A stretch of 64,000 nucleotides of DNA from Pseudomonadota bacterium (GCA_034722015.1 JAYENI010000088.1:30574-94573), one strand, 5' to 3'; shown: positions 6,555-56,140, counted from the stretch's first letter. Program-made: numbers and translations. The notes: generated by a model not told the origin, from the sequence alone.

Positions 6555-7001
6555 TTAGTCGCAGAAACTGCTGATATTCGCCTCGGCCTCTCGAATGAGT
6601 TCCTGGCGCTCCTCTTCCGGCAGGATCCTGTACTCGTCGCCTTCCTTCAACTTGACGCGTCCGCGGCTGGTGAGCCGGGTCAGCGATTGCCTTGAAAGAT
6701 CGCAGTTCTGTCGGCGGGCTTCGGCTTCGCGCTGTTGCCTCGCGTCACCGGCTTCGGTTTCCATTCGCTCCAGGCGACGGTCCTCGTAGGCCTCCATCTC
6801 CTGCAGCAGTCGGGGATCCGGCTGCCCCGCGTTAGGAGGCGCCCTTTCCGGTGTGATTTCCAGGGCATTCGCATCGGGAGGCGGTGTCTGGGTGTAGTGA
6901 ATCTGTCCCGATGCGTCCCGCCACTTGTACATCGCCGCTGATACTGTCACGGGCGCCAGGATGCATGCCGCGGCGAAAAAGAAAACGATCCGGTTCAACA
7001 T
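6555..7001 (-). CDS. DUF4124 secreted protein
   Basis: Signal-peptide-like N-terminus MLNRIVFFFAAACILAPVTVSAA followed by the MYKWRDASGQIHYTQTPPP motif characteristic of DUF4124; charged coiled-coil C-terminus. Confidence 0.65.
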   Translation of the reverse strand: MLNRIVFFFAAACILAPVTVSAAMYKWRDASGQIHYTQTPPPDANALEITPERAPPNAGQPDPRLLQEMEAYEDRRLERMETEAGDARQQREAEARRQNCDLSRQSLTRLTSRGRVKLKEGDEYRILPEEERQELIREAEANISSFCD

Positions 7002-7215
7002 AGATCCAGCAGCCAGAGTGAATGTCGCGGAACTATACAAGAATCCAGGTCCCGATACATCCGCGTGCCGGATTGTCCGCCCCCGGGGGTGTATGGGGAA
7101 GGACCCACGGGCGTAAACGATTTGCGGGCCGTGACAGGAATGGCAGGCGCGAGTTTGAGATACCGGAGTGATATAATATATTTATCGCTCCAGACACAGT
7201 CTTTATGAGAAACCC

Positions 7216-8304: not shown

Positions 8305-8709
8305 ATGCTCGGAAACATGCAACCCCTGGACGGTTCCCTCATTCGGGACGCAGCAACGCGAAAGCTTGTGAGGAATTTCTCCAGGCTGTCCCCCGGTGAT
8401 CGCGAAACGGTGATCGCGTTCGTCGAGTTTCTCCTGCAGCGATCCGAGGAGGGGCCTTCGGACGATGCCGGGGACACGCCTGCGGCGGTACCGCTGGATA
8501 TCCCGCGGCCGGCGGTCGAATCCGTCGTGAAAGCCATCAAGCGGTTGTCGGCCACCTACCCGATGGTGGAAAAATCGGAAATGCTGAACGAGACATCGTC
8601 ACTGATGACGCAGCACCTCGTGCAGGGTCGCCGGGCGTCGGAGGTGATCGACGATCTCGAAGCGATGTTCAGCGCTCACTTCGAGGTGTGGAAGGAGAAG
8701 CGAGGGTGA
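8305..8709 (+). CDS. hypothetical protein (134 aa, acidic, no recognizable domain)
   Basis: ORF only; stop overlaps the next gene start (GTGA), which suggests translational coupling with the AI-2E transporter. Confidence 0.4.
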   Translation: MLGNMQPLDGSLIRDAATRKLVRNFSRLSPGDRETVIAFVEFLLQRSEEGPSDDAGDTPAAVPLDIPRPAVESVVKAIKRLSATYPMVEKSEMLNETSSLMTQHLVQGRRASEVIDDLEAMFSAHFEVWKEKRG

Positions 8710-9836
8710 TCGATCTCCTGCGAAACTGGTACAAGCGGCACTTCTCGGACCCGCAGGTCGCCATCCTTGCGTTCATCATCCTGTGCGGGCTGGCCGTCAT
8801 CGTGCTGGCGGGCGACATCCTCGCGCCCTTGCTGTTTGCCATCGTCATCGCCTATGTCCTCGACGGCGCCATCGACCAGTTCGTTCGACTGAAGGTGCCG
8901 CGACTTGCTGCGCTGGGTGTCGTGTTTGCGATGTTTCTCACCTTCCTCGTTTCACTGATTTTCGGCCTGCTGCCCATGCTTTTCAGGCAGAGCGCGCAGT
9001 TCTTCAGGGAAGTGCCGAACATGATCTCCCAGGGGCAGGCACTGCTGATGGAACTGCCGGAGCGTTACCCGAAAGTGATCTCGCAGGAGCAGGTCATCGA
9101 TCTGATCGGCGCATTGCGCAACGAGGTGTCGGAGGCGGGCCAATACGTGCTCTCCACTTCGATTTCGTCCGTTATGGGCATGATCTCGCTCATGGTGTAT
9201 CTGATCCTGGTGCCGCTGCTGGTCTTCTTCTTCCTGAAGGACAAGCAGAAGATACTCGACTGGGCGGCCGGCTTCCTGCCCGAAGAGCGTGGGCTGTCCG
9301 TCGCCGTTTGGGGGGAGGTCAACCGCAAGATCGCGAGCTACATCCGGGGCAAGATCGGAGAGATCATTGTCGTCTGGGGCGTGTCCTATGTAACCTTCAT
9401 GGTCCTGGGACTCGACTTCGCGATGCTGTTGTCCTTTCTGGTCGGGATTTCCGTTGTCGTGCCCTATGTCGGCGCGGCCATCGTGACGCTGCCGGTGGCG
9501 GTGGTGGCGTACTATCAGTGGGGATTCACCTCGGATTTTGCCTATACGCTGGTTGCCTACGGCGTGATTCAGTTCATCGATGGAAATTTACTGGTCCCCA
9601 TTCTGTTCTCGGAGGTGGTCAATCTTCACCCGGTCGCCATCATCACCGCAGTGCTCGTTTTCGGCGGGATCTGGGGTTTCTGGGGGGTGTTTTTCGCGAT
9701 ACCTCTGGCGACGCTGATTCATGCGGTGATCAACGTCTGGCCGGACCGCGGAAAGGCCAACGAAGCCAGTCCGGTCTCGGAGGTTTCGACCAGGGTGTCC
9801 GCCGGCCCCGGTACCGGCCGGAAGACGGGTAGCTGA
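8706..9836 (+). CDS. AI-2E family transporter (PerM/YhhT-like permease)
   Basis: About 376 aa polytopic membrane protein with AI-2E-like helices; start probably GTG at 8706. Confidence 0.8.
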   Translation: MIDLLRNWYKRHFSDPQVAILAFIILCGLAVIVLAGDILAPLLFAIVIAYVLDGAIDQFVRLKVPRLAALGVVFAMFLTFLVSLIFGLLPMLFRQSAQFFREVPNMISQGQALLMELPERYPKVISQEQVIDLIGALRNEVSEAGQYVLSTSISSVMGMISLMVYLILVPLLVFFFLKDKQKILDWAAGFLPEERGLSVAVWGEVNRKIASYIRGKIGEIIVVWGVSYVTFMVLGLDFAMLLSFLVGISVVVPYVGAAIVTLPVAVVAYYQWGFTSDFAYTLVAYGVIQFIDGNLLVPILFSEVVNLHPVAIITAVLVFGGIWGFWGVFFAIPLATLIHAVINVWPDRGKANEASPVSEVSTRVSAGPGTGRKTGS

Positions 9837-9912
9837 GCGGGGCCAGTTCCCAGGCGATTTGCGCCAACCGGTCCGCGTGACCGCATCGAAATCCAATCGG
9901 TCCCTGCGTGCC

Positions 9913-10818
9913 CTATGGGTTTTCGCGAACCCGCAGAAAGGAGGCGTGCCTGGGATTTCCGTTACCGGTCAGACCATAATACTTGAACGTGATGGTGGAA
10001 CCGACCGGGGGCGGGTCCCGGCGCTGTGCATCGGTGAAGCCGGTGCCGACGCGGATACGCCGGTTACGCCAATCCAGCAGCAGCGCGCCCATCATCCCCT
10101 CGAATTTGCCACTGCCCGGCAGGTGCGCTATGACAATGCCCTCATCGTCGAGGTACGGTTTGAGTTTGAGCAGGTCGGACGACCGGCCCGCTGCGTAGTA
10201 CGAGTCACCCCTGTGTAGCATCAGACCCTCGCCACCTTTGGCGGTGACCTCTTCGAGCATCCGCGCCAGCATTGCCTCGTCCAGGACCCTGGTTTGTGGC
10301 ACGGAACGAAGATACGGGGAATCTGCCTTTCCCACGATGCTTGCGAGGGTCTCAAGGCGTTCGTCGAAGGTGGTCCGGAAACCCGGCAGGTCGAACGCCA
10401 TGAAACGGATGCCGCGCCACTCCGATTCGACCGGTTTCATTCTTCGCACGGCGGCTGACAGGGCCTCGAATGTCCCCCTGCCCATCCAGAGTTCGCCGTC
10501 AAGCGCGATGGCGGGGAATCCTTCGGTGAACCAATCGGGTGAGGCGATTTCATGTCCATTGCGCGAGAGCAGCCGGTCACCGTCCCACAAGGCCCGTACC
10601 CCGTCGTACTTTTCGCTCACCCGGTATTCCCGAAGGTCGATGCCCTTCTCGTAGACCTCCGCCAGTAACAGGGGCGGCACGGGACTTGCGGGCAACGGGA
10701 TCGCGGCGGTGCTGGCCAACAGAAGAAATGTTACCAAGGGGCGCGTGCCGTATTTCGACGCGCTTCGCACCCTCGTGCCGCCACCGGCCAGAACGTTTTC
10801 CCGCCTTGCAGGTTTCAT
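9913..10818 (-). CDS. minimal ATP-dependent DNA ligase, Lig E type, with N-terminal signal peptide (predicted periplasmic)
   Basis: Motif I SEKYDGVRALWDG (KxDG adenylation lysine), motif III-like IALDGELW, motif IV EGLMLH, motif V LLKLKP; hydrophobic leader RPLVTFLLLASTAAIPLPA; about 300 aa with no extra domains. Confidence 0.8.
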   Translation of the reverse strand: MKPARRENVLAGGGTRVRSASKYGTRPLVTFLLLASTAAIPLPASPVPPLLLAEVYEKGIDLREYRVSEKYDGVRALWDGDRLLSRNGHEIASPDWFTEGFPAIALDGELWMGRGTFEALSAAVRRMKPVESEWRGIRFMAFDLPGFRTTFDERLETLASIVGKADSPYLRSVPQTRVLDEAMLARMLEEVTAKGGEGLMLHRGDSYYAAGRSSDLLKLKPYLDDEGIVIAHLPGSGKFEGMMGALLLDWRNRRIRVGTGFTDAQRRDPPPVGSTITFKYYGLTGNGNPRHASFLRVRENP

Positions 10819-10862
10819 GGCGTCGTTCGCGTCAGTTCACGGTCCGCGCCGGGCGGATGTCC

Positions 10863-12269
10863 TCAAAGGGCTTCCGAGGCGAAGTCCGCGAGACGGGACC
10901 GTTCACCGCGCAGCAGGGTGATGTGTCCTGCGTGGGGCCATCCCTTGAAGTGGTCGACGACGTAAGTCAATCCGGAAGTCGTTTCCGTCAGGTAGGGTGT
11001 GTCGATCTGGGCGATATTGCCGATGCACACGAGTTTGGTTCCCGGCCCCGACCGCGTAATCAGTGTCTTCATCTGCTTCGGCGTGAGGTTCTGCGCCTCG
11101 TCGAGGATGATGTAGCGATTCAGGAAGGTTCGACCCCGCATGAAATTGACGGAGCGGATCTTGACCTTGCTGAGCACGATGTCGTTGGTGGCGGCACGCC
11201 CCCACTCGCCGCCTTCCCCTTTCTGCGTCAGCACCTCCAGGTTGTCCATCAGGGCGCCCATCCACGGTGTCATTTTTTCTTCCTCGGTCCCGGGGAGAAA
11301 ACCGATGTCCTCGCCGACCGGGATGGTGATGCGCGTCATGATGATTTCACGATATCTTTGTTCGTCGAGCGTCTGCGCCAGCCCGGCTGCCAGGGCCAGC
11401 AGGGTCTTGCCGCTGCCGGCGACGCCAACCAGGGAGACGAAGTCGATATCGGGATCGAGTAGAAGATTCAGCGCGAAATTCTGTTCGCGGTTGAGTGCCG
11501 TCACACCCCAGACACTGTGTCTGGGCTCAGTGTAGTCGTTGGCGTATTCGATGACGGCGTGGTCAGCTGCCACGTCACGTACAATTGCGCCGAATGGCTC
11601 CGCTCCCTCCAGGCTGAGGCAGAGGTTGGGAGTCCAGCTTGCCGCCAGTGGACCCTTGATTCTGTAGTAGGTATGGCCTTGTTCTTTCCAGGACTCCATC
11701 TCTTTACCGTGGGTCTCCCAGAAGTCGTCGGGAAGCTCCGCAGTGCCGCTGTACAAAAGGTCCACGTCCTCGAGGACCTGGTCGTTGTAGTAATCCTCGG
11801 CGTGAATCCCCAGGACTGCCGCCTTGATGCGCAGATTGATGTCTTTTGATACCAGCGTGACATGGGTCTGCGGGGAGTTCCCGCTAAGCGCCAGTGCAAT
11901 GCCGAGAATGGCATTGTCGGGTGTCGTGCCGGGCAGGCTGTCCGGCAATTCCACCGGTTGTTCCCGGGTTTGCAGAAAGAGTCTGCCACTGGCCTTGCCG
12001 GGGACCTCACCTATCTCACTGATCCGCAGGCCCTGCGTGATCTCGTCGCGGTTCCGGCCGGTGGTCAGTGCGTCGATGATCCTGCTGGCCTGGCGTACGT
12101 TGCGCGCCACTTCCGACACCCCTTTCTTGGCCTGGTCGAGTTCCTCGAGCACGACCATGGGCACGTAGATGTCGTGGCGTTTGAAACGGTACAGCGCCAT
12201 CGGGTCATGCATCAGGACATTCGTGTCAATGACAAAAAGGCGGTTCTCGGTGGTTGTTTTTTCAGGCAT
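10863..12269 (-). CDS. PhoH2-type protein: N-terminal PIN nuclease domain fused to a PhoH-like ATPase/helicase domain (YlaK-like)
   Basis: N-terminus LFVIDTNVLMHDP (PIN), central Walker A VGVAGSGKT, PhoH-family C-terminus. Confidence 0.85.
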   Translation of the reverse strand: MPEKTTTENRLFVIDTNVLMHDPMALYRFKRHDIYVPMVVLEELDQAKKGVSEVARNVRQASRIIDALTTGRNRDEITQGLRISEIGEVPGKASGRLFLQTREQPVELPDSLPGTTPDNAILGIALALSGNSPQTHVTLVSKDINLRIKAAVLGIHAEDYYNDQVLEDVDLLYSGTAELPDDFWETHGKEMESWKEQGHTYYRIKGPLAASWTPNLCLSLEGAEPFGAIVRDVAADHAVIEYANDYTEPRHSVWGVTALNREQNFALNLLLDPDIDFVSLVGVAGSGKTLLALAAGLAQTLDEQRYREIIMTRITIPVGEDIGFLPGTEEEKMTPWMGALMDNLEVLTQKGEGGEWGRAATNDIVLSKVKIRSVNFMRGRTFLNRYIILDEAQNLTPKQMKTLITRSGPGTKLVCIGNIAQIDTPYLTETTSGLTYVVDHFKGWPHAGHITLLRGERSRLADFASEAL

Positions 12270-12551
12270 GGCGTCTCACGGAAGGGATCGAAAACACAGG
12301 GAGCGTTCGGAATTTGGCGGTCCTGTTCCGGGTGTGTGACCCCGGCATCAGTGTCTTTCGGGTCTGCCCCCGTCGACGAGCGGGACTGGAGGGCACGAGT
12401 GATCCGCCGGGCCAGCGCCACGCGGAACAGGGGATACGCCCGTATTCCTGGATAAATCATGTGGTGCCCTCGAGGCAGCGCGACAAGCCGGAGGCGCCCG
12501 ACGGTTCCCGTCACCAATTACCCCGCCATACCACGCGTCCCAACGCATGGT

Positions 12552-13085
12552 TCAGGGAACCTTGATTGGCTCCAGGACACCGTCCAGGTTCAGTTCGTCG
12601 CAAAGATCCATGAATTCCTCCCGCAAGTGCGCAATGTGCAGCGAGGAAGGCACTTCAATCGTCATCCGGATTGTCAGCATGGGGGTAGCGGTGTGGGCCG
12701 CATGATAGGTGCTGGTGACCATGTCCTGGATATTGATGCCCCGGGTCGCCAGGAAGGCCGCAACCTGATTCACGATGCCGGGTTGGTCGAGGGTGACCAC
12801 ATCGAGGGTGTACGGCAGCATTCGTTCTTTGGACTTGCGCTGCTCGGTATTTCTCGAGGTAATGGTCAGGTTGAGCGGCCCCTGCAGCGCGGCTAGCGCG
12901 TTCTCCAGTTTGGCGAGATTGTTCCACTGGCCGGAGACGAGCTGGATCAGTGCAAACGATCCGCCGAGCACGGACATCCTGCTGTCTTCGATGTTACAGC
13001 GGTGTCCCGTCACGGTGGCCGAGAGTTTTTCCACGGTCCCCGCACGATCTTCGCCGATTGCCGAAATGACCAGATAATTCGCCAT
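12552..13085 (-). CDS. gcvR: glycine cleavage system transcriptional repressor GcvR (tandem ACT domains)
   Basis: 177 aa beginning MANYLVISAIGEDRAGTVEKLS (ACT); divergent from dapA as in E. coli gcvR-dapA-bamC. Confidence 0.75.
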   Translation of the reverse strand: MANYLVISAIGEDRAGTVEKLSATVTGHRCNIEDSRMSVLGGSFALIQLVSGQWNNLAKLENALAALQGPLNLTITSRNTEQRKSKERMLPYTLDVVTLDQPGIVNQVAAFLATRGINIQDMVTSTYHAAHTATPMLTIRMTIEVPSSLHIAHLREEFMDLCDELNLDGVLEPIKVP

Positions 13086-13270
13086 GCCCGATTCCGATAC
13101 GCTCACAAGTGCCTCAAGGTTACCAGTATTCAGGGTGTCCATAAACGGAAACTCGCGCTTGACGCACCGTTGCGGATTCCTGTCGGCCGGCCCTCCGGTA
13201 TGACCTCCGGTTTGCTTGTCAAGCCATACGGCCAACAGTACCATGGCTTGAATTTTTTGCGGAGAGGCCA

Positions 13271-14152
13271 ATGTTTCACGGCAGCATCGTTGCCCTGGTG
13301 ACACCCATGTCGGGGGACGGCGCAATCGACAACAGGGCGCTTGATGAGCTGATCGAGTTTCATATTGAGAGCGGTACCGATGGTATCGTTCCCGTCGGGA
13401 CGACCGGCGAATCCGCCACACTGGACCACGAGGAACACTGTGCAGTCATCCGGCGAGTCGTCGATCGGGTCGCCGGTCGTATACCGGTGATCGCGGGCAC
13501 GGGCGCGAATGCGACCAGTGAGGCGATCGAATTGACTCGGTGTGCCATGGAGGTGGGTGCCGATGCCTGTCTGCTCGTCACACCGTATTACAACAAGCCC
13601 ACCCAGGAGGGGCTCTACCGCCACTACAAGGCCGTGGCGGATGCAGTTCCCGTTCCGCAGATCCTTTACAACGTGCCGGGAAGGACGGCTTGTGACATGC
13701 TTCCCGAAACCGTTGAGCGTCTGGCCGGGTTGCCGAATATCGTTGGCATCAAGGAAGCCACGGGAGATCCCGCGAGATCGAAGGAGATCGCCGGGCGATG
13801 CGGAGACCGGCTTGACGTATTTAGTGGAGATGACGCTGTCGCGAGGGAGATTATACTTGGCGGCGGCAAGGGCGTGATCTCTGTCACCGCCAATGTGGCG
13901 CCGGCCGCGATGCGAGCGATGTGTGAAGCCGCGATCCAGGGGGATGCGGAGCGGGCGCTGGCACTCGACGGTCCTTTACTTGGTCTTCACCGCGATCTTT
14001 TCCTCGAGTCGAATCCTATCCCGGTGAAATGGGCCCTGGGTGAAATGGGGCTCATTCCCCGGGGTATTCGTCTGCCGCTGACACCATTTTCGGATACGTT
14101 TCAGCCGCGTCTCAGGCAGTCCATGATCCAGGCCGGTCTCCAGGTGGCATAG
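13271..14152 (+). CDS. dapA: 4-hydroxy-tetrahydrodipicolinate synthase
   Basis: MFHGSIVALVTPM....GTTGESATL... DapA signature; 293 aa. Confidence 0.95.
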   Translation: MFHGSIVALVTPMSGDGAIDNRALDELIEFHIESGTDGIVPVGTTGESATLDHEEHCAVIRRVVDRVAGRIPVIAGTGANATSEAIELTRCAMEVGADACLLVTPYYNKPTQEGLYRHYKAVADAVPVPQILYNVPGRTACDMLPETVERLAGLPNIVGIKEATGDPARSKEIAGRCGDRLDVFSGDDAVAREIILGGGKGVISVTANVAPAAMRAMCEAAIQGDAERALALDGPLLGLHRDLFLESNPIPVKWALGEMGLIPRGIRLPLTPFSDTFQPRLRQSMIQAGLQVA

Positions 14153-46950: not shown

Positions 46951-48312
46951 ATGAGAAATAATGCCCGGGGCCGGAAATTGCGCACGATATGGTCCACACG
47001 GTTCATGAACAGCAGGGAACAAAGTATGGGTATTCTCAGTTTATTGCAGAGCAGTCGCGGAGAAGCTTACGGGGTCGCAGGTATTTCAATTCCTGACCGG
47101 TTGAAGAATCTGGCTCCTGCTTCCCTTGCGGCCACGCTAATCACCGTTCTTGCTCCTTCGCTGGTCTGGGCGGAGGCTTGGGAACTCGAACCCGAGTTCA
47201 GTATTGGTGGTAATTACAACACCAATTTCCGGCTGTCGACGACGGATCCCGACGAAGTCGGGACCGGGCGAGTCGCCGGTGCGCTCAAGTTCAGCCGTCT
47301 CACCGAGTCCTTCGAGCTTGCGGGACTTGCGCGACTGGATTTCGTCGGTTTCGTCGGGGATACCGACAGACTGTCCAACACGGGCAATCAGTTGTTCGGG
47401 TTCGAGTCGAAGAAAAAATTCGAACGCTCCAATATCGGTCTTGACGCGTTGTGGAAGCGTGACACGGTACTCAGGAGCATCAGGGTGGTGGGAGACCCCG
47501 ACAACCCGGCCATTGAGCCTGACCAGTCGGTTGACGACAACATCGTGAACGAGAACATTCGTCGCAACGCGATCGATGTTCGCCTCCCGTACAAGTATGA
47601 TCTCACGGAACGAGATAGATTGGGCGCGAGGTTGCGGTTTAATACTACCCTCTATGAGGAGAACGATTTTCTGGATGATTACCGGCAAGGTTCGCTGAGG
47701 CTCGATTACAACCACGAACTGACGGAAAAGGACAATATTATCGCCCTGTTCCAGACATCGCGATTCGACTCCGACAGCGGGCGCACGACGGATAACTACG
47801 AACTGCAGGCCGGATACCGGTACGCCTTTTCGGAGACGACGAGCGCCGGATTTACCGCGGGCGGGCGCTATACGGTCTTCGACAACCCCGGTTCCGGGGA
47901 TGACGGCACCAATACAGGTTTTGTGGCCCGGTTGCAGGCCTCGAAGATTACGGGTAAGGCGCGGTACGATGTCAGGCTTGAGAGAAACCTCTCCCCCAGT
48001 GGTGTTGGCGATCTGGTAGAGACCGATGAACTGAACGCCAACATGAGCTACCAGCTCCAAGAGAGATGGACTTTCGCGATTAGGTCACGATTGTTCGAGA
48101 ACGAAAATATCGACAACCCCGAGTCGGGCAGCAACCGGCGGTTCTTTTCGCTGCTTCCCGTTTTGTCGTATCGGTTTACGCCAGACTGGCGCGTGGAAAC
48201 GGCCTATCGGTATCTGAGACAGAAGCGGTTCAGCGAACCGACCAGCGCCGACAGCCACACGGTGTTCCTTAATGTGCGATGGACGAAAGTTACGCCGATC
48301 GATACGCTTTAA
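46951..48312 (+). CDS. outer-membrane beta-barrel protein, PEP-CTERM/EPS-locus-associated type (TIGR03016-like)
   Basis: Signal peptide (AATLITVLAPSLVWA), alternating beta-strand pattern, aromatic-rich C-terminus; the first gene of the polysaccharide locus; exact start uncertain (46951 to 47026). Confidence 0.55.
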   Translation: MRNNARGRKLRTIWSTRFMNSREQSMGILSLLQSSRGEAYGVAGISIPDRLKNLAPASLAATLITVLAPSLVWAEAWELEPEFSIGGNYNTNFRLSTTDPDEVGTGRVAGALKFSRLTESFELAGLARLDFVGFVGDTDRLSNTGNQLFGFESKKKFERSNIGLDALWKRDTVLRSIRVVGDPDNPAIEPDQSVDDNIVNENIRRNAIDVRLPYKYDLTERDRLGARLRFNTTLYEENDFLDDYRQGSLRLDYNHELTEKDNIIALFQTSRFDSDSGRTTDNYELQAGYRYAFSETTSAGFTAGGRYTVFDNPGSGDDGTNTGFVARLQASKITGKARYDVRLERNLSPSGVGDLVETDELNANMSYQLQERWTFAIRSRLFENENIDNPESGSNRRFFSLLPVLSYRFTPDWRVETAYRYLRQKRFSEPTSADSHTVFLNVRWTKVTPIDTL

Positions 48313-48475
48313 GCTGGACGCTGCCCCCCAGGGTGGAGTCAGTCGTTCGGGGGGCCAGCCCTCAGGACGTGTCTCGAAGGGATATGACATAACACCCGGA
48401 GGCATGGCTTTTGCCGATGGTTGGAAAAATTAGGTGACTCCTTACCATTTCTCGGGTGACGAACGCAGGTAACAA

Positions 48476-50248
48476 ATGGGAAAGCAGGATCGCCAGGCGG
48501 GGTACGAGTTACGAGAGTATGTCGGCATACTACGGCGCAGAAAGCGGGAAATTTTCCTGCCTGCCGCAGGCATACTTTTGCTGGCGGTGGTCGTAGCATT
48601 TATGTTGCCCGTCGTTTACCGGGCCCCGGTAACCATCCTGATCGAGAGCCAGGACGTCCCGGAGACCTTTGTCGCCGCGACAATGCGTGAAGAATTGTCG
48701 GAGCAGATGCAGAGTGCCATGTTGCGCGTGCTGGACCGGGACACGTTGCTTGGAATTGTCGAGTCCAACAATCTTTTCCTCGACGAGACAGACGAGCTGC
48801 TGCCGGCGCAACTGGCCGGGATGTTGCGCAAATCCATCGGGATGGAGATCGCACAGTTCCAGGCGGTGAAATCTGAAGATACCGCATCGGCCACGATGGC
48901 GATCCAGATCTACGCTGATCTCGATGAACCGGTCGCCGCGGCCGCTGTATCAAACGAAGTTGCGAGCCTGTTTCTCAGTGAAGACCGTGCCAAGCGCAAC
49001 GAGGAAGCGGAATCGGTCTATAATTTCCTGCAGGCCGAGGCCGAAAAGCTAAACACGGTCATTGAGGAACTGGAGCGGAAACTTGCGACTTTCAAGGTTG
49101 GAAACATCAACCAGCTTCCGGAACTCAAGGACTTCAACATGCGCCTCTATGAGCAGACAGGGAACAAACTGGAGCGCACGGAAGAGGAAATTCGTTCTCT
49201 GGAGGACAGAAAACTCAATCTGGAATCCCAGATGGCCGTCACGAATCCATACGGCACCCTGTACGCGGAGCCTGGCAAGACCCTGCTTTCCGGTCCGGAG
49301 CGTCTGCGCACTCTGCTGACCGAGTACCTCAGGGTATCTTCCCAATATACCCCCAATCACCCTGACGTCATCAAGCTTCGAAGGGAAATCAATTCACTGG
49401 AAGGCCAGGTGGGTGGCTCGAGCAGGGCGAGTAGCCTGGTCAACAAACTGACAGTGACGCGCGAGCAACTGTCCGAACTAAAACAGAAATACACCAGAGA
49501 ACATCCCGACATCGTGAAGCTGAACAACAGTATTCCTTTGCTTGAAAGGGAATTGCGGGAATTTACCGAGGCTCAGGGCATGGCTGGAGGCGGAGTGGCG
49601 AGCCCGACAAATCCTGCATATGTCTCGCTGAAAACACAGCTTGATACCATTAGTGCCAATCTCAGGGCGAAGTACGAACAGAAAACGAGTCTTCAGTCCA
49701 AGCTGAACGACTACGAGGAACGCCTCAGCCAGACGCCGATTGTCGAGCGGGAATATCTTTCGTTGAGCCGTGACTACGATAATGCGATGGGTAAATATAA
49801 GGAAATCAAGGACAAGCAGCTCGAAGCGCAATTGGCGCTGGGCCTTGAGGGTGACTCGAAAGCACAGCGATTGACCCTGGTTCGGAGGGCCAATGTGCCA
49901 ATAGCGCCGTACAGCCCAAATCGGCCGGCATTGTTTGCAATCGGATTGGTGCTGGGTCTGATTGTCGGAGTGGGCGTCGCGACTATCGCCGAATACAACG
50001 ACGAGACCGTCAGAGGCAAGCGGGGTGTTTTGGATGTCTTTGGTGCGCCTCCCCTGGCGACGATTCCCTACATTGAGAACAGTGTCGACGTCATAGCAAG
50101 GTCCAGACGAACCAGAATGATCCTGGTTGTTGCTGGAGTGGTTTTCACGGCGGTGCTTGCCTATGCCTACTACTTGTGGTCTTCACAGGCTGTCGTAGAA
50201 AAAGCGGATAGTACATCAGGGAATGCGTATAGTTCCCTGCGTGGCTAG
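48476..50248 (+). CDS. polysaccharide chain-length determinant / co-polymerase protein (Wzz-like, PEP-CTERM-locus subfamily-like) with a long coiled-coil periplasmic domain
   Basis: N-terminal TM after YELREYVGILRRRK, extensive coiled-coil, second TM near the C-terminus (LFAIGLVLGLIVGVGVATIA). Confidence 0.75.
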   Translation: MGKQDRQAGYELREYVGILRRRKREIFLPAAGILLLAVVVAFMLPVVYRAPVTILIESQDVPETFVAATMREELSEQMQSAMLRVLDRDTLLGIVESNNLFLDETDELLPAQLAGMLRKSIGMEIAQFQAVKSEDTASATMAIQIYADLDEPVAAAAVSNEVASLFLSEDRAKRNEEAESVYNFLQAEAEKLNTVIEELERKLATFKVGNINQLPELKDFNMRLYEQTGNKLERTEEEIRSLEDRKLNLESQMAVTNPYGTLYAEPGKTLLSGPERLRTLLTEYLRVSSQYTPNHPDVIKLRREINSLEGQVGGSSRASSLVNKLTVTREQLSELKQKYTREHPDIVKLNNSIPLLERELREFTEAQGMAGGGVASPTNPAYVSLKTQLDTISANLRAKYEQKTSLQSKLNDYEERLSQTPIVEREYLSLSRDYDNAMGKYKEIKDKQLEAQLALGLEGDSKAQRLTLVRRANVPIAPYSPNRPALFAIGLVLGLIVGVGVATIAEYNDETVRGKRGVLDVFGAPPLATIPYIENSVDVIARSRRTRMILVVAGVVFTAVLAYAYYLWSSQAVVEKADSTSGNAYSSLRG

Positions 50249-50553
50249 ATATCCATGAAAACAGCGCTTGTATAGCGACAAAACGACGAAAGAGGCATCC
50301 CTTTCTTTGGGGTGGATATAGGATTCTGGTACGTTCGGTGCGGTTGTGCCGGATTGAGGATGTTTGATGGCCATAGTGTCCACCGAATATGCAACTGTTT
50401 CGTCCCCGTGTATGACGTGATAGGAAAGACATAGGGCAGGATCGGCGGTAGCAATTGCGGGTGTAGCGCGTCCCGGTTTCAATAAACCTGTTGTGCAATT
50501 TATCAGGTTTATACTCGGTGGAATTGACGATCAAGGTGTAACTGGAAAGTATT

Positions 50554-51360
50554 ATGGACAGCATTTCAAAAGCAATGTCGCTCGCGAAGAGTAACATCAA
50601 GCGATCTCCAGTGGCGCTGAGAGAGGAAGAAGAAAAGAATATACGATACTCCAAGACCCGGAACTACAGCATTCGCGAAGATGTTCTAAAAGAGAATCGT
50701 TTGCTTAGCGAGTCCTCGGACAAGAGGGTCGTGGACGCATTCCGTTTGTTGCGAACACGTGTGATGAGTCGGATGCAGCAAAACCAGTGGAATACGCTTG
50801 GAATAACAAGCTGTAGGCCGAATGAGGGGAAATCCCTGACCGCGATCAATCTCGCGATAAGTATCGCGATGCGCCACAACTACACAGTCATGATGGTTGA
50901 CACTGATCTGAGACGACCCAGCATCCACTCGTTTTTTGGTATTACTCCGAAATACGGGCTCGCAGATTACCTTATCAGGGACGTGCCAATCGAAGAGGTC
51001 CTGGTTCACCCGGGGATTGAACGTTTTGTCATGCTCCCAAGTGGGGGATCTCTTGATGCGCAGTATCATTCTTCGGAGTATCTTGCTTCGCCGAAGATGG
51101 CGCAACTGGTCGACGAACTCAAGACGCGTTACCCCTCCCGGTTGGTTCTCTTCGATCTTCCTCCCATCCTGATTGGTGATGACGTCGTTGCGTTTTCCAC
51201 CTATCTGGACGCGATCATGCTGGTCGTCGAGGACGGAAAGACACGTGAGGGGGAACTGGCTCACGCGCTTGATCTTGTTTCCGAGGTAGAGGTCATCGGC
51301 ACTGTTCTTAACAAGTCGGATGAACTGACGCAGGATAATCACTACCAGGGTTATTACTAG
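50554..51360 (+). CDS. tyrosine-kinase-like P-loop ATPase of the CpsD/CapB/EpsG family (separate cytoplasmic partner of the Wzz-like protein)
   Basis: Degenerate Walker A (PNEGKSLTAINLAISIA), Walker A' (VMMVDTDLRRP), Walker B (LVLFDLPP); C-terminal Tyr-rich tail YQGYY. Confidence 0.7.
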   Translation: MDSISKAMSLAKSNIKRSPVALREEEEKNIRYSKTRNYSIREDVLKENRLLSESSDKRVVDAFRLLRTRVMSRMQQNQWNTLGITSCRPNEGKSLTAINLAISIAMRHNYTVMMVDTDLRRPSIHSFFGITPKYGLADYLIRDVPIEEVLVHPGIERFVMLPSGGSLDAQYHSSEYLASPKMAQLVDELKTRYPSRLVLFDLPPILIGDDVVAFSTYLDAIMLVVEDGKTREGELAHALDLVSEVEVIGTVLNKSDELTQDNHYQGYY

Positions 51361-51559
51361 TGTTGACCGTCCCCTTTCGGTACGCTCAACAGTAGCAGAA
51401 CCCTTGTACCTGGACATGGATCGATGTTCTGCAATCTGGAAGGAAGCAAGGACTCATGAATCACCGTATCCGGAAGGGATATGCGTGAGGCGCCATAGAC
51501 GAATTGACAGGGTCTAGCATTCCCCTTCCGCTCCGATCCCGAACACCCGGTAGAAAAAT

Positions 51560-52333
51560 ATGAAAGCCGTTTTGCTGGCTGGCGGTCTTGGCACGCGCCT
51601 GTCCGAGGAAACTTCGATTCGCCCGAAACCCATGGTAGAAATAGGCGGTAAGCCTATCCTGTGGCATATCATGAAGATCTACCATGGTCACGGAATCAAG
51701 GAATTCATTGTGTGCTGTGGTTACAAGGGCTTCGTTATCAAGGAGTACTTTGCGAACTACAGGCTGTATATGTCAGACGTGACATTCGATATTCGGGCGA
51801 ACGAGATGAAAATCCATCAGAGCGATGCCGAGGATTGGAAAGTGACCCTGGTCGACACCGGTGTAGACACAATGACGGGTGGAAGGATGCGGCGGGTGCA
51901 AGACTACCTTGGTGACGAAACATTCCTGATGACCTACGGTGACGGTGTCGGTGATATCGATATTGGAAAACTGATTTCGTTTCACCGGGAGCAAGGTACG
52001 CTCGCGACATTGACTGCGGTACAGCCGTCCGGGAGATTCGGTGCCTTTACACTCACGGATGATCAGAAAAAGATCGACCATTTCCGGGAGAAGCCAAGAG
52101 GTGACAATGCGTGGATCAACGGCGGGTATTTCGTCCTGGAGCCGGAAGTCCTCGACTACATCGAGGGTGATGATACCGTCTGGGAAAGAGATCCTATGGA
52201 ACGACTTGCTTCCGAGGGGCGACTATCCGCCTATCAGCATCACGGTTTCTGGCATCCGATGGACACACTGCGGGACAGGGACAATCTGGAATCAATCTGG
52301 GAAAGTCGCGATGCACCCTGGAAAAACTGGTAA
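51560..52333 (+). CDS. rfbF: glucose-1-phosphate cytidylyltransferase (CDP-glucose pyrophosphorylase)
   Basis: MKAVLLAGGLGTRL...PKPMVEIGGKPILWHIM, 257 aa, RfbF/DdhA family. Confidence 0.9.
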   Translation: MKAVLLAGGLGTRLSEETSIRPKPMVEIGGKPILWHIMKIYHGHGIKEFIVCCGYKGFVIKEYFANYRLYMSDVTFDIRANEMKIHQSDAEDWKVTLVDTGVDTMTGGRMRRVQDYLGDETFLMTYGDGVGDIDIGKLISFHREQGTLATLTAVQPSGRFGAFTLTDDQKKIDHFREKPRGDNAWINGGYFVLEPEVLDYIEGDDTVWERDPMERLASEGRLSAYQHHGFWHPMDTLRDRDNLESIWESRDAPWKNW

Positions 52334-52338
52334 CGGCA

Positions 52339-53532
52339 GTGACGGATTTCCTGGTTATCGGGGGCGGGATTATCGGCATCAGTATTGCCCGGGAACTGAA
52401 ACGAACCTACGCCGACGCATCGGTTGAAGTTGTAGAGAAGGAGTCCTCGGGAGGCGAGCATGCGAGTGGCCGCAACAGTGGTGTACTGCACGCAGGATTC
52501 TACTATACGGCAGACAGTCTGAAGGCCCGTTTTACAAGAGACGGCAACCGGGAACTCACGGAGTATTGTGAAAGTAGAAAAATCCCGCTGAACAAATGCG
52601 GGAAGCTTGTCGTGGCGAAGAACGAGACCGAAGACGTGATGCTGGACGAGTTGATGGTACGCGGCAGAAAAAATGGTGTTCTGCTCGATGAGGTGACGGC
52701 CGAGGAGGCGAAGGAGATCGAACCGAGGGTGAAGACTTACCGTCGCGCCCTGTTTTCGCCCACGACATCATCTGCTGATCCCCGGCAGGTACTTGCCGCC
52801 ATGGAGGCGGATGCCAAACGGGAAGGAATTCGGATTAGCTACTCGGTGAGCTTTGTCTCCAGGACGCGGGACGGGATTCGGGTGTCTGACGGCGTACGTA
52901 ATGTAGGATATGTCGTCAATGCGGCAGGCTTGTATGCGGACCGTATCGGTAAGGAGTTCGGATTTTCCGAAAACTACACGATTCTTCCCTTCAAGGGACT
53001 CTATCTGAGTTCGGATGAGCCTCCTGGGGCGTTTCGAACGAATATTTATCCAGTTCCTGACCTCAGAAATCCGTTTCTTGGCGTGCATTTTACGGTGAAG
53101 GCAGACGGACGTGTAAAGATCGGGCCCACGGCAATACCTGCCTTGTGGCGGGAACAGTACAGTGGATTCGAAAATTTCAATTCGGGAGAGGCATTCGAGA
53201 TGGCATTGCGTTCCGCGAGCCTGCTATTTTCCTCGGGTTTCGGATACTCGGGTCTTGCACTGTCGGAAGTCAGGAAATATTCAAGACGGTACATGGTGAA
53301 ACTTGCGGGAGAGCTTGCGACCGGTATCGAAGTTTCCGCCTTCCGGAAATGGGCGAGACCTGGAATCAGGGCCCAGCTTCTGGACACGCGGACGCGACGT
53401 TTGGAGATGGATTTCGTGCTCGAAGGAGACTCGCGATCGATGCATGTGCTGAACGCGGTGTCCCCAGGCTGGACGTGTTCCTTGCCGTTTTCCGCCCATG
53501 TCGTCAAGGCAATCGATAAAAAACTGGGATAA
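52339..53532 (+). CDS. FAD-dependent oxidoreductase of the L-2-hydroxyglutarate oxidase (LhgO/YgaF) / glycerol-3-phosphate-oxidase-like family
   Basis: N-terminal dinucleotide motif VIGGGIIGISIA..E, 397 aa; embedded between rfbF and the sugar epimerase genes. Confidence 0.75.
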   Translation: MTDFLVIGGGIIGISIARELKRTYADASVEVVEKESSGGEHASGRNSGVLHAGFYYTADSLKARFTRDGNRELTEYCESRKIPLNKCGKLVVAKNETEDVMLDELMVRGRKNGVLLDEVTAEEAKEIEPRVKTYRRALFSPTTSSADPRQVLAAMEADAKREGIRISYSVSFVSRTRDGIRVSDGVRNVGYVVNAAGLYADRIGKEFGFSENYTILPFKGLYLSSDEPPGAFRTNIYPVPDLRNPFLGVHFTVKADGRVKIGPTAIPALWREQYSGFENFNSGEAFEMALRSASLLFSSGFGYSGLALSEVRKYSRRYMVKLAGELATGIEVSAFRKWARPGIRAQLLDTRTRRLEMDFVLEGDSRSMHVLNAVSPGWTCSLPFSAHVVKAIDKKLG

Positions 53533-53551
53533 GAAAAAGAGGTAGTCGCTG

Positions 53552-54595
53552 GTGAATATCGTTATAACGGGGAACATGGGTTACATTGGTCCGACTCTGG
53601 TGAGAATGCTTCTGTCATCCGAACCAGATGCAAACATTTATGGGATCGATTCCGGCTTTTTTGCGCATTGCCTGACCGGAGTCAGATCGTTTCCGGAACA
53701 CAACCTAAAGGCGCAGTTCTTCCGGGACATACGGGATATCGACGAGACCCTGCTGCAAGGCATGGATGGCGTTATTCATCTGGCAGCGATTTCAAACGAC
53801 CCAATGGGAAAAGCCTTCGAGGAAGTGACGGCAGACGTCAATTACCGCGCAAGTGTCAAACTGGCAAAGTTGGCAAGGAAGGCTGGTGTTGGGCGGTTTG
53901 TATTTGCATCGAGTTGTAGTGTCTACGGTTATGCGGAGGGCGAAGCACGGGATGAGCGTTCCGAGCTGAATCCTCTTACGGCGTATGCCCGTTCCAAGAT
54001 AGCCACGGAAAAGGACATCGAGCCGCTGGCGAGTGAGGAATTCGTTATCACCAGCCTGCGATTCCCCACTGCGTGCGGCATGAGCGACAGGCTTCGCCTG
54101 GATCTGGTTCTCAATGATTTCGTCGCCTCTGCTGTCTCAACAGGAAAGATCAGGATCCTTAGCGACGGAACGCCGTGGAGACCATTGATCGATATAAAGG
54201 ATATGAGCCGTTCGATGAGCTGGGCGGTTGAACGCAATCCCGAAGACGGGGGGAATTTTCTTGCGGTGAACGTGGGACGCACCGAGTGGAACTATCAGGT
54301 CAGGGACGTAGCCGAGGCCGTAAGGGCGGAAATGCCACACGTGGAGATTGAAGTCAACAAGGATGCCATGCCTGACAAGCGATCCTATCAGGTTGACTTT
54401 GGCATGTATGCGGGTCTCGCACCGGACCACCTGCCGGAAGTGGATCTCGCCCAGTCGATTCGGGAGCTCAGGAAAGGACTGACCGATATGGGGTTCGACA
54501 ACGGTGAGTTTCGAAATTCGGACTTCATGCGACTGAAGGTACTTACGGGCCTGCGTGAGCGCGGGATGCTGGATGAGGAATTACGTTGGCAATAG
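53552..54595 (+). CDS. NAD-dependent epimerase/dehydratase-family protein (extended SDR, nucleotide-sugar modifying)
   Basis: ITGNMGYIG Rossmann motif, YARSK catalytic YxxxK; 347 aa. Confidence 0.75.
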   Translation: MNIVITGNMGYIGPTLVRMLLSSEPDANIYGIDSGFFAHCLTGVRSFPEHNLKAQFFRDIRDIDETLLQGMDGVIHLAAISNDPMGKAFEEVTADVNYRASVKLAKLARKAGVGRFVFASSCSVYGYAEGEARDERSELNPLTAYARSKIATEKDIEPLASEEFVITSLRFPTACGMSDRLRLDLVLNDFVASAVSTGKIRILSDGTPWRPLIDIKDMSRSMSWAVERNPEDGGNFLAVNVGRTEWNYQVRDVAEAVRAEMPHVEIEVNKDAMPDKRSYQVDFGMYAGLAPDHLPEVDLAQSIRELRKGLTDMGFDNGEFRNSDFMRLKVLTGLRERGMLDEELRWQ

Positions 54596-54722
54596 CACAG
54601 TCGATTTTGGTGTTCCGGTTTTCCGATGTTGGTTGAGGCGTGTTTCTTTTCTGGGCAAGGCCCCATCTGACCCGCCAATGTGTCGTGAGTGCGGGAGAAA
54701 TCCGGACTCAGTGAGATAAGCA

Positions 54723-55253
54723 ATGAAATTTACAGAGACCCGATTGCCCGGCGCATACGTCGTGGAGCCCGAACCGCTCGTTGATGAGAGGGGGTTCTTC
54801 GCCCGTGCCTGGTGCAGCAGCGAATTCGAGAAGAATGGGCTGGTGAACCGGTCGGTACAGGCGAACATGTCGAGCACCAGGAAAAAGGGAACGATGAGGG
54901 GACTGCATCATCAGGTCCCTCCTCATGCCGAGACCAAGTTTTTTCGGTGTACCAGAGGCAGTCTGTTCGATGTCATCGTGGACCTGCGCAAGGATTCCCC
55001 CACCTTCCGGCAATGGACGGGATTGGAATTGTCCGCGGAAAATCACGTGGCCATCTATGTGCCGGAAGGATTCGCGCACGGTTATCTTACGCTGGAAGAC
55101 GAAACAGACGCCTATTACCAGGTTTCAGAGTTCTATACGCCGGGCGCCGAACGCGGTTTCAGATATGATGACCCGGCTTTCGGCATAGATTGGCCGATAG
55201 AACCCCGTGTCGTGTCGGACAAGGACCTGTCATGGGAACCCTTCGGGTGTTGA
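54723..55253 (+). CDS. dTDP-4-dehydrorhamnose 3,5-epimerase-family (RmlC-like cupin) sugar-nucleotide epimerase
   Basis: RGFFARAW....RGLHHQ...K.FRCTRGSLFDVIVDLR...YVPEGFAHGY, typical RmlC motifs; 176 aa. Confidence 0.85.
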   Translation: MKFTETRLPGAYVVEPEPLVDERGFFARAWCSSEFEKNGLVNRSVQANMSSTRKKGTMRGLHHQVPPHAETKFFRCTRGSLFDVIVDLRKDSPTFRQWTGLELSAENHVAIYVPEGFAHGYLTLEDETDAYYQVSEFYTPGAERGFRYDDPAFGIDWPIEPRVVSDKDLSWEPFGC

Positions 55254-55303
55254 GGCGACGAGCCCTCGATGGAGATCCGCATAAATCATGATGGAATGGA
55301 AGG

Positions 55304-56140
55304 ATGTCTAGCGAAAATGACTTGAATGACGTAGCGGTAATCAGACCTCCGAAGAGCTGGGAGCTTCTCGATTTCAGGGAGTTGCTCGCCTATCGCGATC
55401 TTTTTTACTTTCTGGTGTGGAGGGACATCAAGGTTCTCTACGCCCAGACGGTACTGGGATTCGCATGGGCCATACTTAACCCGCTGATACAAATCATCAT
55501 TTTCAGCGTAATTTTCGGAAAGGTTGCGCGCCTGGATACGGGAGGAATTCCGTATGTTCTTTTCTCTACGGTTGCCATCATCCCGTGGACCTATATGTCT
55601 GAGGCAATGTCGGCGTCAAGCCAGAGCCTGGTCACCGGGCAGAATATGCTGGGAAAGGTCTATTTTCCCAGATTGATTTTTCCGCTGACCCCGGTTCTGG
55701 CAAAGCTGGTTGATTTCAGTATTTCTCTGTTGCTCCTCGTTGGCGTGATGATCTACTACAAGATTACCCCGTCGATCAATCTTGTCTACCTGCCCGTATT
55801 TGTGCTGCTGATGATGGCCATTCCCGCCGGTGTCGGGTTGTGGATGTCGTCTCTGGCCATTCGATTCAGGGATGTCAAGTTCGCCATGCCGTTTGTCATG
55901 CGCATGCTGATCTATACCGCCCCGATTCTCTATTCCGCGGAGAAGATCCCGGAGCAGTACCGGTTGCTTTACTCTCTCAACCCGATCGTTGGTGTGATCG
56001 AAGGTTATCGGGCCTGCCTGCTCGGGACGGAAATGCAGTGGGAGTACATCCTTCCGGGGGTGGTGACGGGGGTATTGTTACTGGTAAGCGGTGCAATGTA
56101 TTTCCGGCGCATGGAACGTGTGTTCGTCGACGTCATTTGA
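55304..56140 (+). CDS. wzm: ABC-2 type polysaccharide/O-antigen export permease
   Basis: 6-TM ABC-2 permease, about 278 aa, paired with the downstream ATPase. Confidence 0.85.
   Translation: MSSENDLNDVAVIRPPKSWELLDFRELLAYRDLFYFLVWRDIKVLYAQTVLGFAWAILNPLIQIIIFSVIFGKVARLDTGGIPYVLFSTVAIIPWTYMSEAMSASSQSLVTGQNMLGKVYFPRLIFPLTPVLAKLVDFSISLLLLVGVMIYYKITPSINLVYLPVFVLLMMAIPAGVGLWMSSLAIRFRDVKFAMPFVMRMLIYTAPILYSAEKIPEQYRLLYSLNPIVGVIEGYRACLLGTEMQWEYILPGVVTGVLLLVSGAMYFRRMERVFVDVI

Follow-up and report, generated by a model that had tools for sequence, protein, structure and literature searches.

Adjacent phoH2 and Lig E-type DNA ligase genes in one narrow clade: probably functionally unrelated genes joined by a lineage-specific event

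When a gene for an RNA-processing enzyme is followed directly by a gene for an apparently exported DNA ligase, do the two make up a functional module or is their adjacency an accident of position? This question is raised by a 64,000-nucleotide (nt) stretch of DNA from a Pseudomonadota bacterium (GCA_034722015.1 JAYENI010000088.1:30574-94573; hereafter the window), in which a phoH2-type gene lies immediately upstream of a gene for a minimal ATP-dependent DNA ligase of the Lig E type. The role of Lig E is debated, with competence and extracellular DNA (eDNA) or biofilm functions having been proposed. As its gene neighborhood, unlike those of Lig B, C and D, is uninformative, a partner found repeatedly beside it would have been valuable evidence. 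The original prediction placed two minus-strand open reading frames (ORFs) 44 nt apart, identified their products as PhoH2 and Lig E, and took the pair as a possible stress, competence or biofilm-eDNA response module. The ORF positions agree with that layout, and the two identities are confirmed by Pfam, NCBIfam and PDB matches and by sequence motifs. The proposed module did not hold up, as the linkage with PhoH2 does not recur. In our assessment, phoH2 and Lig E are in all probability functionally unrelated genes that were joined by a lineage-specific event. The elements of the pair are as follows.

10863..12269, minus strand: phoH2-type gene, 468 amino acids (aa), with PIN_4 and PhoH domains
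9913..10818, minus strand: ORF for the Lig E-type minimal ATP-dependent DNA ligase, 301 aa counted from the ATG
10819..10862, minus strand: spacer of 44 nt separating the stop codon of phoH2 from the first in-frame ligase ATG

Recurrence of the pairing

We surveyed Lig E neighborhoods by scanning a 24-sequence alignment against one genome per GTDB species, which yielded more than 591 confirmed relatives, and the best 80 of these were fetched with 6-kb flanks. The ligases at these 80 loci are 45-59% identical to the window ligase and come from Gamma- and Betaproteobacteria and a few other phyla; 75 of the loci include 1.5 kb or more of sequence upstream of Lig E, and 76 include as much downstream. 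Using the window PhoH2 as a tblastn query (E ≤ 1e-5), we detected no PhoH-like gene within ~6 kb of Lig E at any of the 80 loci, with nothing but noise at E ≤ 10, and none at a further 59 loci obtained by scanning metagenome contigs; the positive controls all scored. Such a survey had been set beforehand as the refutation test of the module, and its outcome was thus 0/80 genome loci and 0/59 metagenome loci. The phoH2-lig E pair was seen only in the window's own clade, namely at loci L081 and L146. Moreover, all-against-all clustering of the neighboring ORFs from the 139 Lig E loci revealed no family present at more than 10 loci, and therefore no conserved Lig E neighborhood, consistent with the published view that Lig E lacks conserved synteny (PMC7470946; bioRxiv 10.64898/2026.03.22.713542).

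Starting from phoH2 instead, we found the protein to be highly conserved: many uncultured Gammaproteobacteria, Thioalkalivibrio and Ectothiorhodospira have relatives that are 70-76% identical to it. We compared seven distinct phoH2 relatives, i.e., L082/L083 (91% protein identity) and L084, L085, L086, L147, L148 and L149 (74-76%). The genes and spacer relevant to this comparison are as follows.

12552..13085, minus strand: gcvR-like ACT-ACT regulator gene, ~177 aa, the conserved same-strand upstream neighbor of phoH2
8688..9836, plus strand: gene for an AI-2E family transporter, which converges on phoH2 and lig E and is usually the 3' neighbor of phoH2 in relatives
9837..9912: spacer of 76 nt between the convergent 3' ends of the ligase and AI-2E transporter genes

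The gcvR-like gene lies directly upstream of phoH2, on the same strand, in all nine loci examined, and on every contig that extends far enough this gcvR-like-phoH2 unit diverges from dapA-bamC. Downstream of phoH2, a convergent AI-2E transporter-hypothetical-LysR group is found in most relatives. The window carries the same block, in which dapA-bamC diverges from gcvR-like-phoH2, and the latter converges upon AI-2E transporter-hypothetical-LysR. What varies is the content of the phoH2/AI-2E junction. It is empty (37-90 nt) in L084 and L148; L085, L147 and L149 have a Ser/Thr kinase-HDOD-GAF gene (~760-810 aa) there; and phoH2 of L086 is directly followed by a LysR gene. In the window, L081 and L146 the slot is occupied by Lig E, whereas L082/L083 contain a Lig E stump. 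L146, a metagenome contig with 94% nucleotide identity to the window, runs from the 3' end of phoH2 through the same spacer and Lig E into the 3' end of the AI-2E gene. No intact Lig E follows phoH2 in any of the seven distinct relatives. This arrangement suggests that phoH2 would be a vertically inherited, housekeeping-type gene residing in a conserved gammaproteobacterial block, and that the short convergent junction behind it may act as a variable slot for different accessory genes.

These data bear directly on whether phoH2 and lig E form a functional bicistronic module, co-transcribed and co-regulated for stress, competence or biofilm-eDNA responses, in which the cytoplasmic RNase/helicase would tune transcripts while the exported ligase would repair DNA in the periplasm or outside the cell. 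Several features are compatible with such a module: (i) the genes lie on one strand at a distance of 44 nt, and neither a terminator-like nor a promoter-like consensus was found in the gap; (ii) the pair is retained in L146 with identical spacer architecture; (iii) Lig E has been tied to competence and biofilm in Neisseria, where roles in forming biofilms and in transformation by damaged DNA have been attributed to it; and (iv) PhoH2 has been tied to stationary-phase SigF regulation in Mycobacterium smegmatis, its PhoH2 being an ATP-dependent RNA helicase and PIN RNase that acts on sigF transcripts (PMC7390352). However, the pairing occurs at 0/139 Lig E loci and in 0/7 distinct phoH2 relatives, unrelated genes fill the same slot in other relatives, and in the nearest relative Lig E has apparently been deleted while phoH2 has been kept at 91% identity. 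Moreover, each product would work in a compartment of its own and on a different kind of nucleic acid, and the only co-mention that our literature search for a link between PhoH and Lig E returned was a paper on lignin chemistry. We therefore regard a functional module as very unlikely.

Two side observations were made on the Lig E loci. A gene for a DUF4124-type small secreted protein lies just upstream of Lig E at 6 of the 139 loci (L090, 4441-4890, and five others), and the window has a DUF4124 gene at 6555-7040 on the minus strand, ~3 kb from Lig E, which is probably a coincidence. In addition, Lig E relatives (45-55% identity) were found in MAGs (metagenome-assembled genomes) labeled Vicinamibacterales/Vicinamibacteria (Acidobacteriota), Limisphaerales and Lentimonas (L011, L030, L047, L064 and L076), the latter two groups belonging to Verrucomicrobiota. 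In the literature, Lig E is presented as an essentially proteobacterial enzyme; horizontal transfer or binning errors could account for these loci.

The post-phoH2 spacer of the closest relative

The history of the pairing can be read most closely in L082/L083, where the spacer after phoH2 is 221 nt long. An ATG is located 52 nt past the phoH2 stop codon and opens a short unannotated ORF (9461-9560 in L083, and likewise in L082) encoding MNHSGLLILSLLLVTGVVFPLSANTAPSLLLAD, which then runs into unrelated sequence up to the AI-2E 3' end. This stump has the n/h/c layout of a signal peptide followed by the motif APSLLLA(D), a mature N-terminus that occurs verbatim in several Lig E homologues. When the stump peptide was searched in six frames of the 1.27 Mb of fetched loci, the three best matches were Lig E N-termini in register (L146, E = 0.023; L081, E = 0.10; L068, E = 0.26), and Lig E N-termini made up 7-9 of the top 40 matches, compared with ~1% of the search space. 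Relative to the window, the segment missing from L082/L083 is as follows.

~9873..~10657, minus strand: ~785 bp, starting near codon 55 of Lig E and extending ~40 nt beyond its stop codon

The DNA flanking this proposed deletion aligns to the window on both sides. The L082/L083 sequence is thus likely a Lig E remnant, produced by a gain and a subsequent deletion of ~785 bp that left phoH2 intact. More specifically, Lig E would have entered the phoH2/AI-2E junction a single time, in a recent ancestor and with the orientation of phoH2; it would then have been kept in the window lineage and largely deleted in the sister lineage, with phoH2 undamaged. A single gain with retention in one lineage and loss in its sister was judged the most parsimonious history.

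Alternatively, the pairing may be non-functional and yet younger, Lig E having inserted only in the window lineage after its split from L082/L083, in which case the stump would resemble Lig E by chance or be a small signal-peptide ORF unrelated to it. Consistent with this alternative, the top weak match of a Lig E hidden Markov model (HMM) on the L083 spacer (E ~0.4) falls on the other strand, the stump shares only 44% identity with the leader in the window, and the non-coding spacers of the window and L083 are too diverged to align well, so that a recognizable pseudogene is somewhat unexpected. In contrast, the stump lies at the exact position and on the strand of the Lig E start, with an ATG, the n/h/c layout and APSLLLA; its best matches are Lig E N-termini in register, with ligases of the window clade foremost; and both flanks of the proposed deletion align. 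An insertion confined to the window lineage consequently appears unlikely to us, and we retain a single gain followed by loss in the sister lineage.

The two proteins and their transcription

Both phoH2 and Lig E are ordinary members of known families, and the DNA of the gene pair is already present in public MAG records. In PhoH2, Pfam assigns PIN_4 (PF13638) to residues 12-160 (E = 2e-35) and PhoH (PF02562), a C-terminal P-loop ATPase domain, to residues 256-453 (E = 3e-44). The PIN acidic motifs are intact (IDTNV 14-18, LEELD 41-45, TPDNAIL 116-122 and SKDINL 141-146, with acidic residues D15, E42/E43, D118 and D143), as are Walker A (GVAGSGKT, 282-289) and Walker B (LDEAQN, 389-394). As in other PIN and P-loop domains, these acidic residues and the Walker motifs are taken to be catalytic. 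When compared with NCBIfam NF053827, residues 10-467 span profile positions 2-422 of 427 at a score of 229 bits, which is below the equivalog cut-off of 680; by the NCBI criterion it would thus not be called an equivalog of the mycobacterial RNA 5'-3' helicase PhoH2, although the architecture is the same. Going by its family, PhoH2 would combine an ATP-driven RNA helicase with a PIN RNase and work in the cytoplasm.

The gcvR-like gene and phoH2 are separated by 282 nt (12270-12551), a spacer that is poorly conserved relative to L083 except for ~12 nt before the ATG, and in which no conserved phoAT-like ORF was found upstream of phoH2. The mechanically called gcvR-like ORF (12552..13421, 289 aa) is over-extended, its relatives being 177 aa long.

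For the 301-aa ligase, the only Pfam matches were PF01068 (DNA_ligase_A_M, residues 65-220) and PF14743 (DNA_ligase_OB_2, residues 234-298), such that the protein consists of adenylation and OB-2 domains without an appended DNA-binding domain. It passed NCBIfam PRK09125 ("DNA ligase") with 348 bits versus a cut-off of 200, whereas its scores for the Lig D, Lig C and Lig B models were far under their cut-offs. The top PDB matches were 4D05 (242 bits), 6GDR and 8U6X, the nearest two of which are Lig E enzymes. Motif I (SEKYDGVR, 68-75) holds the catalytic lysine K70 and is accompanied by motifs III (DGELW, 107-111), IIIa (FMAFDLP, 139-145), IV (EGLMLH, 197-202) and V (LLKLK, 216-220), the key residues of which are invariant columns in an alignment of 24 homologues. 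The N-terminus carries a candidate export signal, located as follows.

10687..10770, minus strand: predicted Sec-type signal peptide, ligase residues 17-44, from hydropathy and the -3/-1 rule

This leader comprises a basic n-region, the hydrophobic core LVTFLLLASTAAI (residues 28-40, Kyte-Doolittle values up to 2.15) and a c-region PLPA, with likely cleavage at A44|S45 (PLPA|S), just before the conserved mature start PxLLLA. An equivalent hydrophobic leader precedes PxLLLA in all 23 aligned homologues, and the leaderless crystal construct 4D05 aligns from ligase residue 47. Hydropathy, the -3/-1 rule and the leaders of homologues all point to the signal-peptide-like architecture that the original prediction had proposed, and we infer that the ligase may be exported. 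By analogy with its family, it would then seal nicks in duplex DNA in the periplasm or outside the cell.

The start codon deserves comment. The ATG at 10818 is a GTG in L146, and codons 1-16 differ between the window and L146 by five non-synonymous changes and one synonymous change. Over the 255 codons from 47 to 301, the differences amount to 15 non-synonymous and 22 synonymous changes, mostly at third positions, and this pattern indicates purifying selection acting on the mature ligase in both lineages, as judged from the codons compared. As the ATG is lost in L146 and codons 1-16 show no visible constraint, the true start may instead be the GTG at 10770, giving a protein of 285 aa and a gap of 92 nt to phoH2; the gene caller picked the equivalent of this GTG on L146. 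With a GC content of 0.62 and a GC3 of 0.735, Lig E falls inside the range of its neighbor genes and is therefore not a fresh foreign insert.

As for transcription, phoH2 and lig E have the layout of an operon, being on one strand and 44 nt apart (92 nt from the GTG) with no terminator-like site between them. Scanning 9600-12800 on the minus strand revealed neither an intrinsic terminator nor a sigma-70 consensus, a result that is uninformative for an organism of 60% GC, and no terminator-like hairpin was detected in the 76-nt spacer between the ligase and AI-2E genes (9837..9912). An RNA spanning the end of phoH2, the spacer and the start of lig E folded no better than shuffled sequences (z = -0.04), and an Rfam scan of 9500-13500 returned no match at E ≤ 1. 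Because no terminator is detectable, it is plausible that lig E is transcribed by read-through from phoH2, and an internal promoter is possible as well. Such read-through would be a by-product of the insertion site rather than a sign of a joint pathway.

Competence-type CRP-S sites (TGCGA-N6-TCGCA, up to two mismatches) numbered 43 in the window versus 44.5 expected by chance, and the only match near the gene pair, at 10754..10769, was considered as a promoter element and rejected, as it falls within the ORF, directly behind the alternative GTG start.

Co-transcription also leaves room for a different reading, whereby Lig E was captured in this clade by the gcvR-like/phoH2 transcription unit and is now expressed in response to the same signal as phoH2, which, by analogy with mycobacterial PhoH2, might be one of stationary phase or stress. 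If true, the capture would amount to a clade-specific rewiring of Lig E regulation and could give a clue to when the enzyme is useful. We consider this quite unlikely, and favor the view that functionally unrelated genes came to lie side by side.

Certain points weigh against this favored view. Co-expression is plausible, given the shared strand, the distance of 44-92 nt and the lack of a terminator-like structure, and co-expressed genes can gain joint regulation. The 80 genome loci are those whose Lig E is closest to the window ligase, so that the classical Lig E taxa Neisseria, Haemophilus, Vibrio and Campylobacter are covered by the literature statement only. L082 and L083 may derive from one sample. 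Finally, a full-length Lig E HMM run on the six-frame translated loci of the phoH2 relatives did not find the stump significant; given that result and the shortness of the stump, gain followed by loss is likely rather than proven.

Elsewhere in the window, GC content drops to 0.51-0.55 at 48001-56000, compared with ~0.60 in the remainder, and this segment may be a horizontally acquired island.

Significance and comparison with known systems

Our results support the conclusion that the phoH2-lig E pairing is a positional accident of one clade, in line with the known lack of Lig E synteny. It would represent a single, recent and partly reversed insertion, with Lig E behaving as an accessory gene that is freely gained and lost. 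This negative outcome spares the pursuit of a false module, and it adds no functional information on Lig E.

The window PhoH2 has the same full-length two-domain PIN-PhoH architecture as the PhoH2 proteins of M. tuberculosis and M. smegmatis. The genetic setting differs, in that the mycobacterial gene is preceded by phoAT, a small antitoxin-like gene co-transcribed with it, whereas a gcvR-like ACT regulator gene lies upstream of the window phoH2. The window ligase shares its domains, motifs and hydrophobic leader with characterized Lig E enzymes, namely Psy-Lig (Psychromonas sp. SP041, 4D05), Ame-Lig (Alteromonas mediterranea, 6GDR) and Lig E of Neisseria gonorrhoeae. It differs from other Lig E proteins in being at most ~60% identical to any of them outside its own clade, in having H291 where F is nearly invariant, in a one-residue deletion near residue 252 and, if the ATG start is used, in a leader that is perhaps unusually long (44 aa).

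Accessory ligase genes that adjoin a helicase- or nuclease-type gene on the same strand are also known from Lig B with Lhr helicase-MPE-exonuclease, Lig C with PrimPolC and Lig D with Ku. These three clusters recur in many taxa and are made up entirely of cytoplasmic DNA-repair enzymes (PMC7470946). In contrast, phoH2 and lig E are linked in a single narrow clade only, and they pair an enzyme that acts on RNA with a ligase predicted to be exported.

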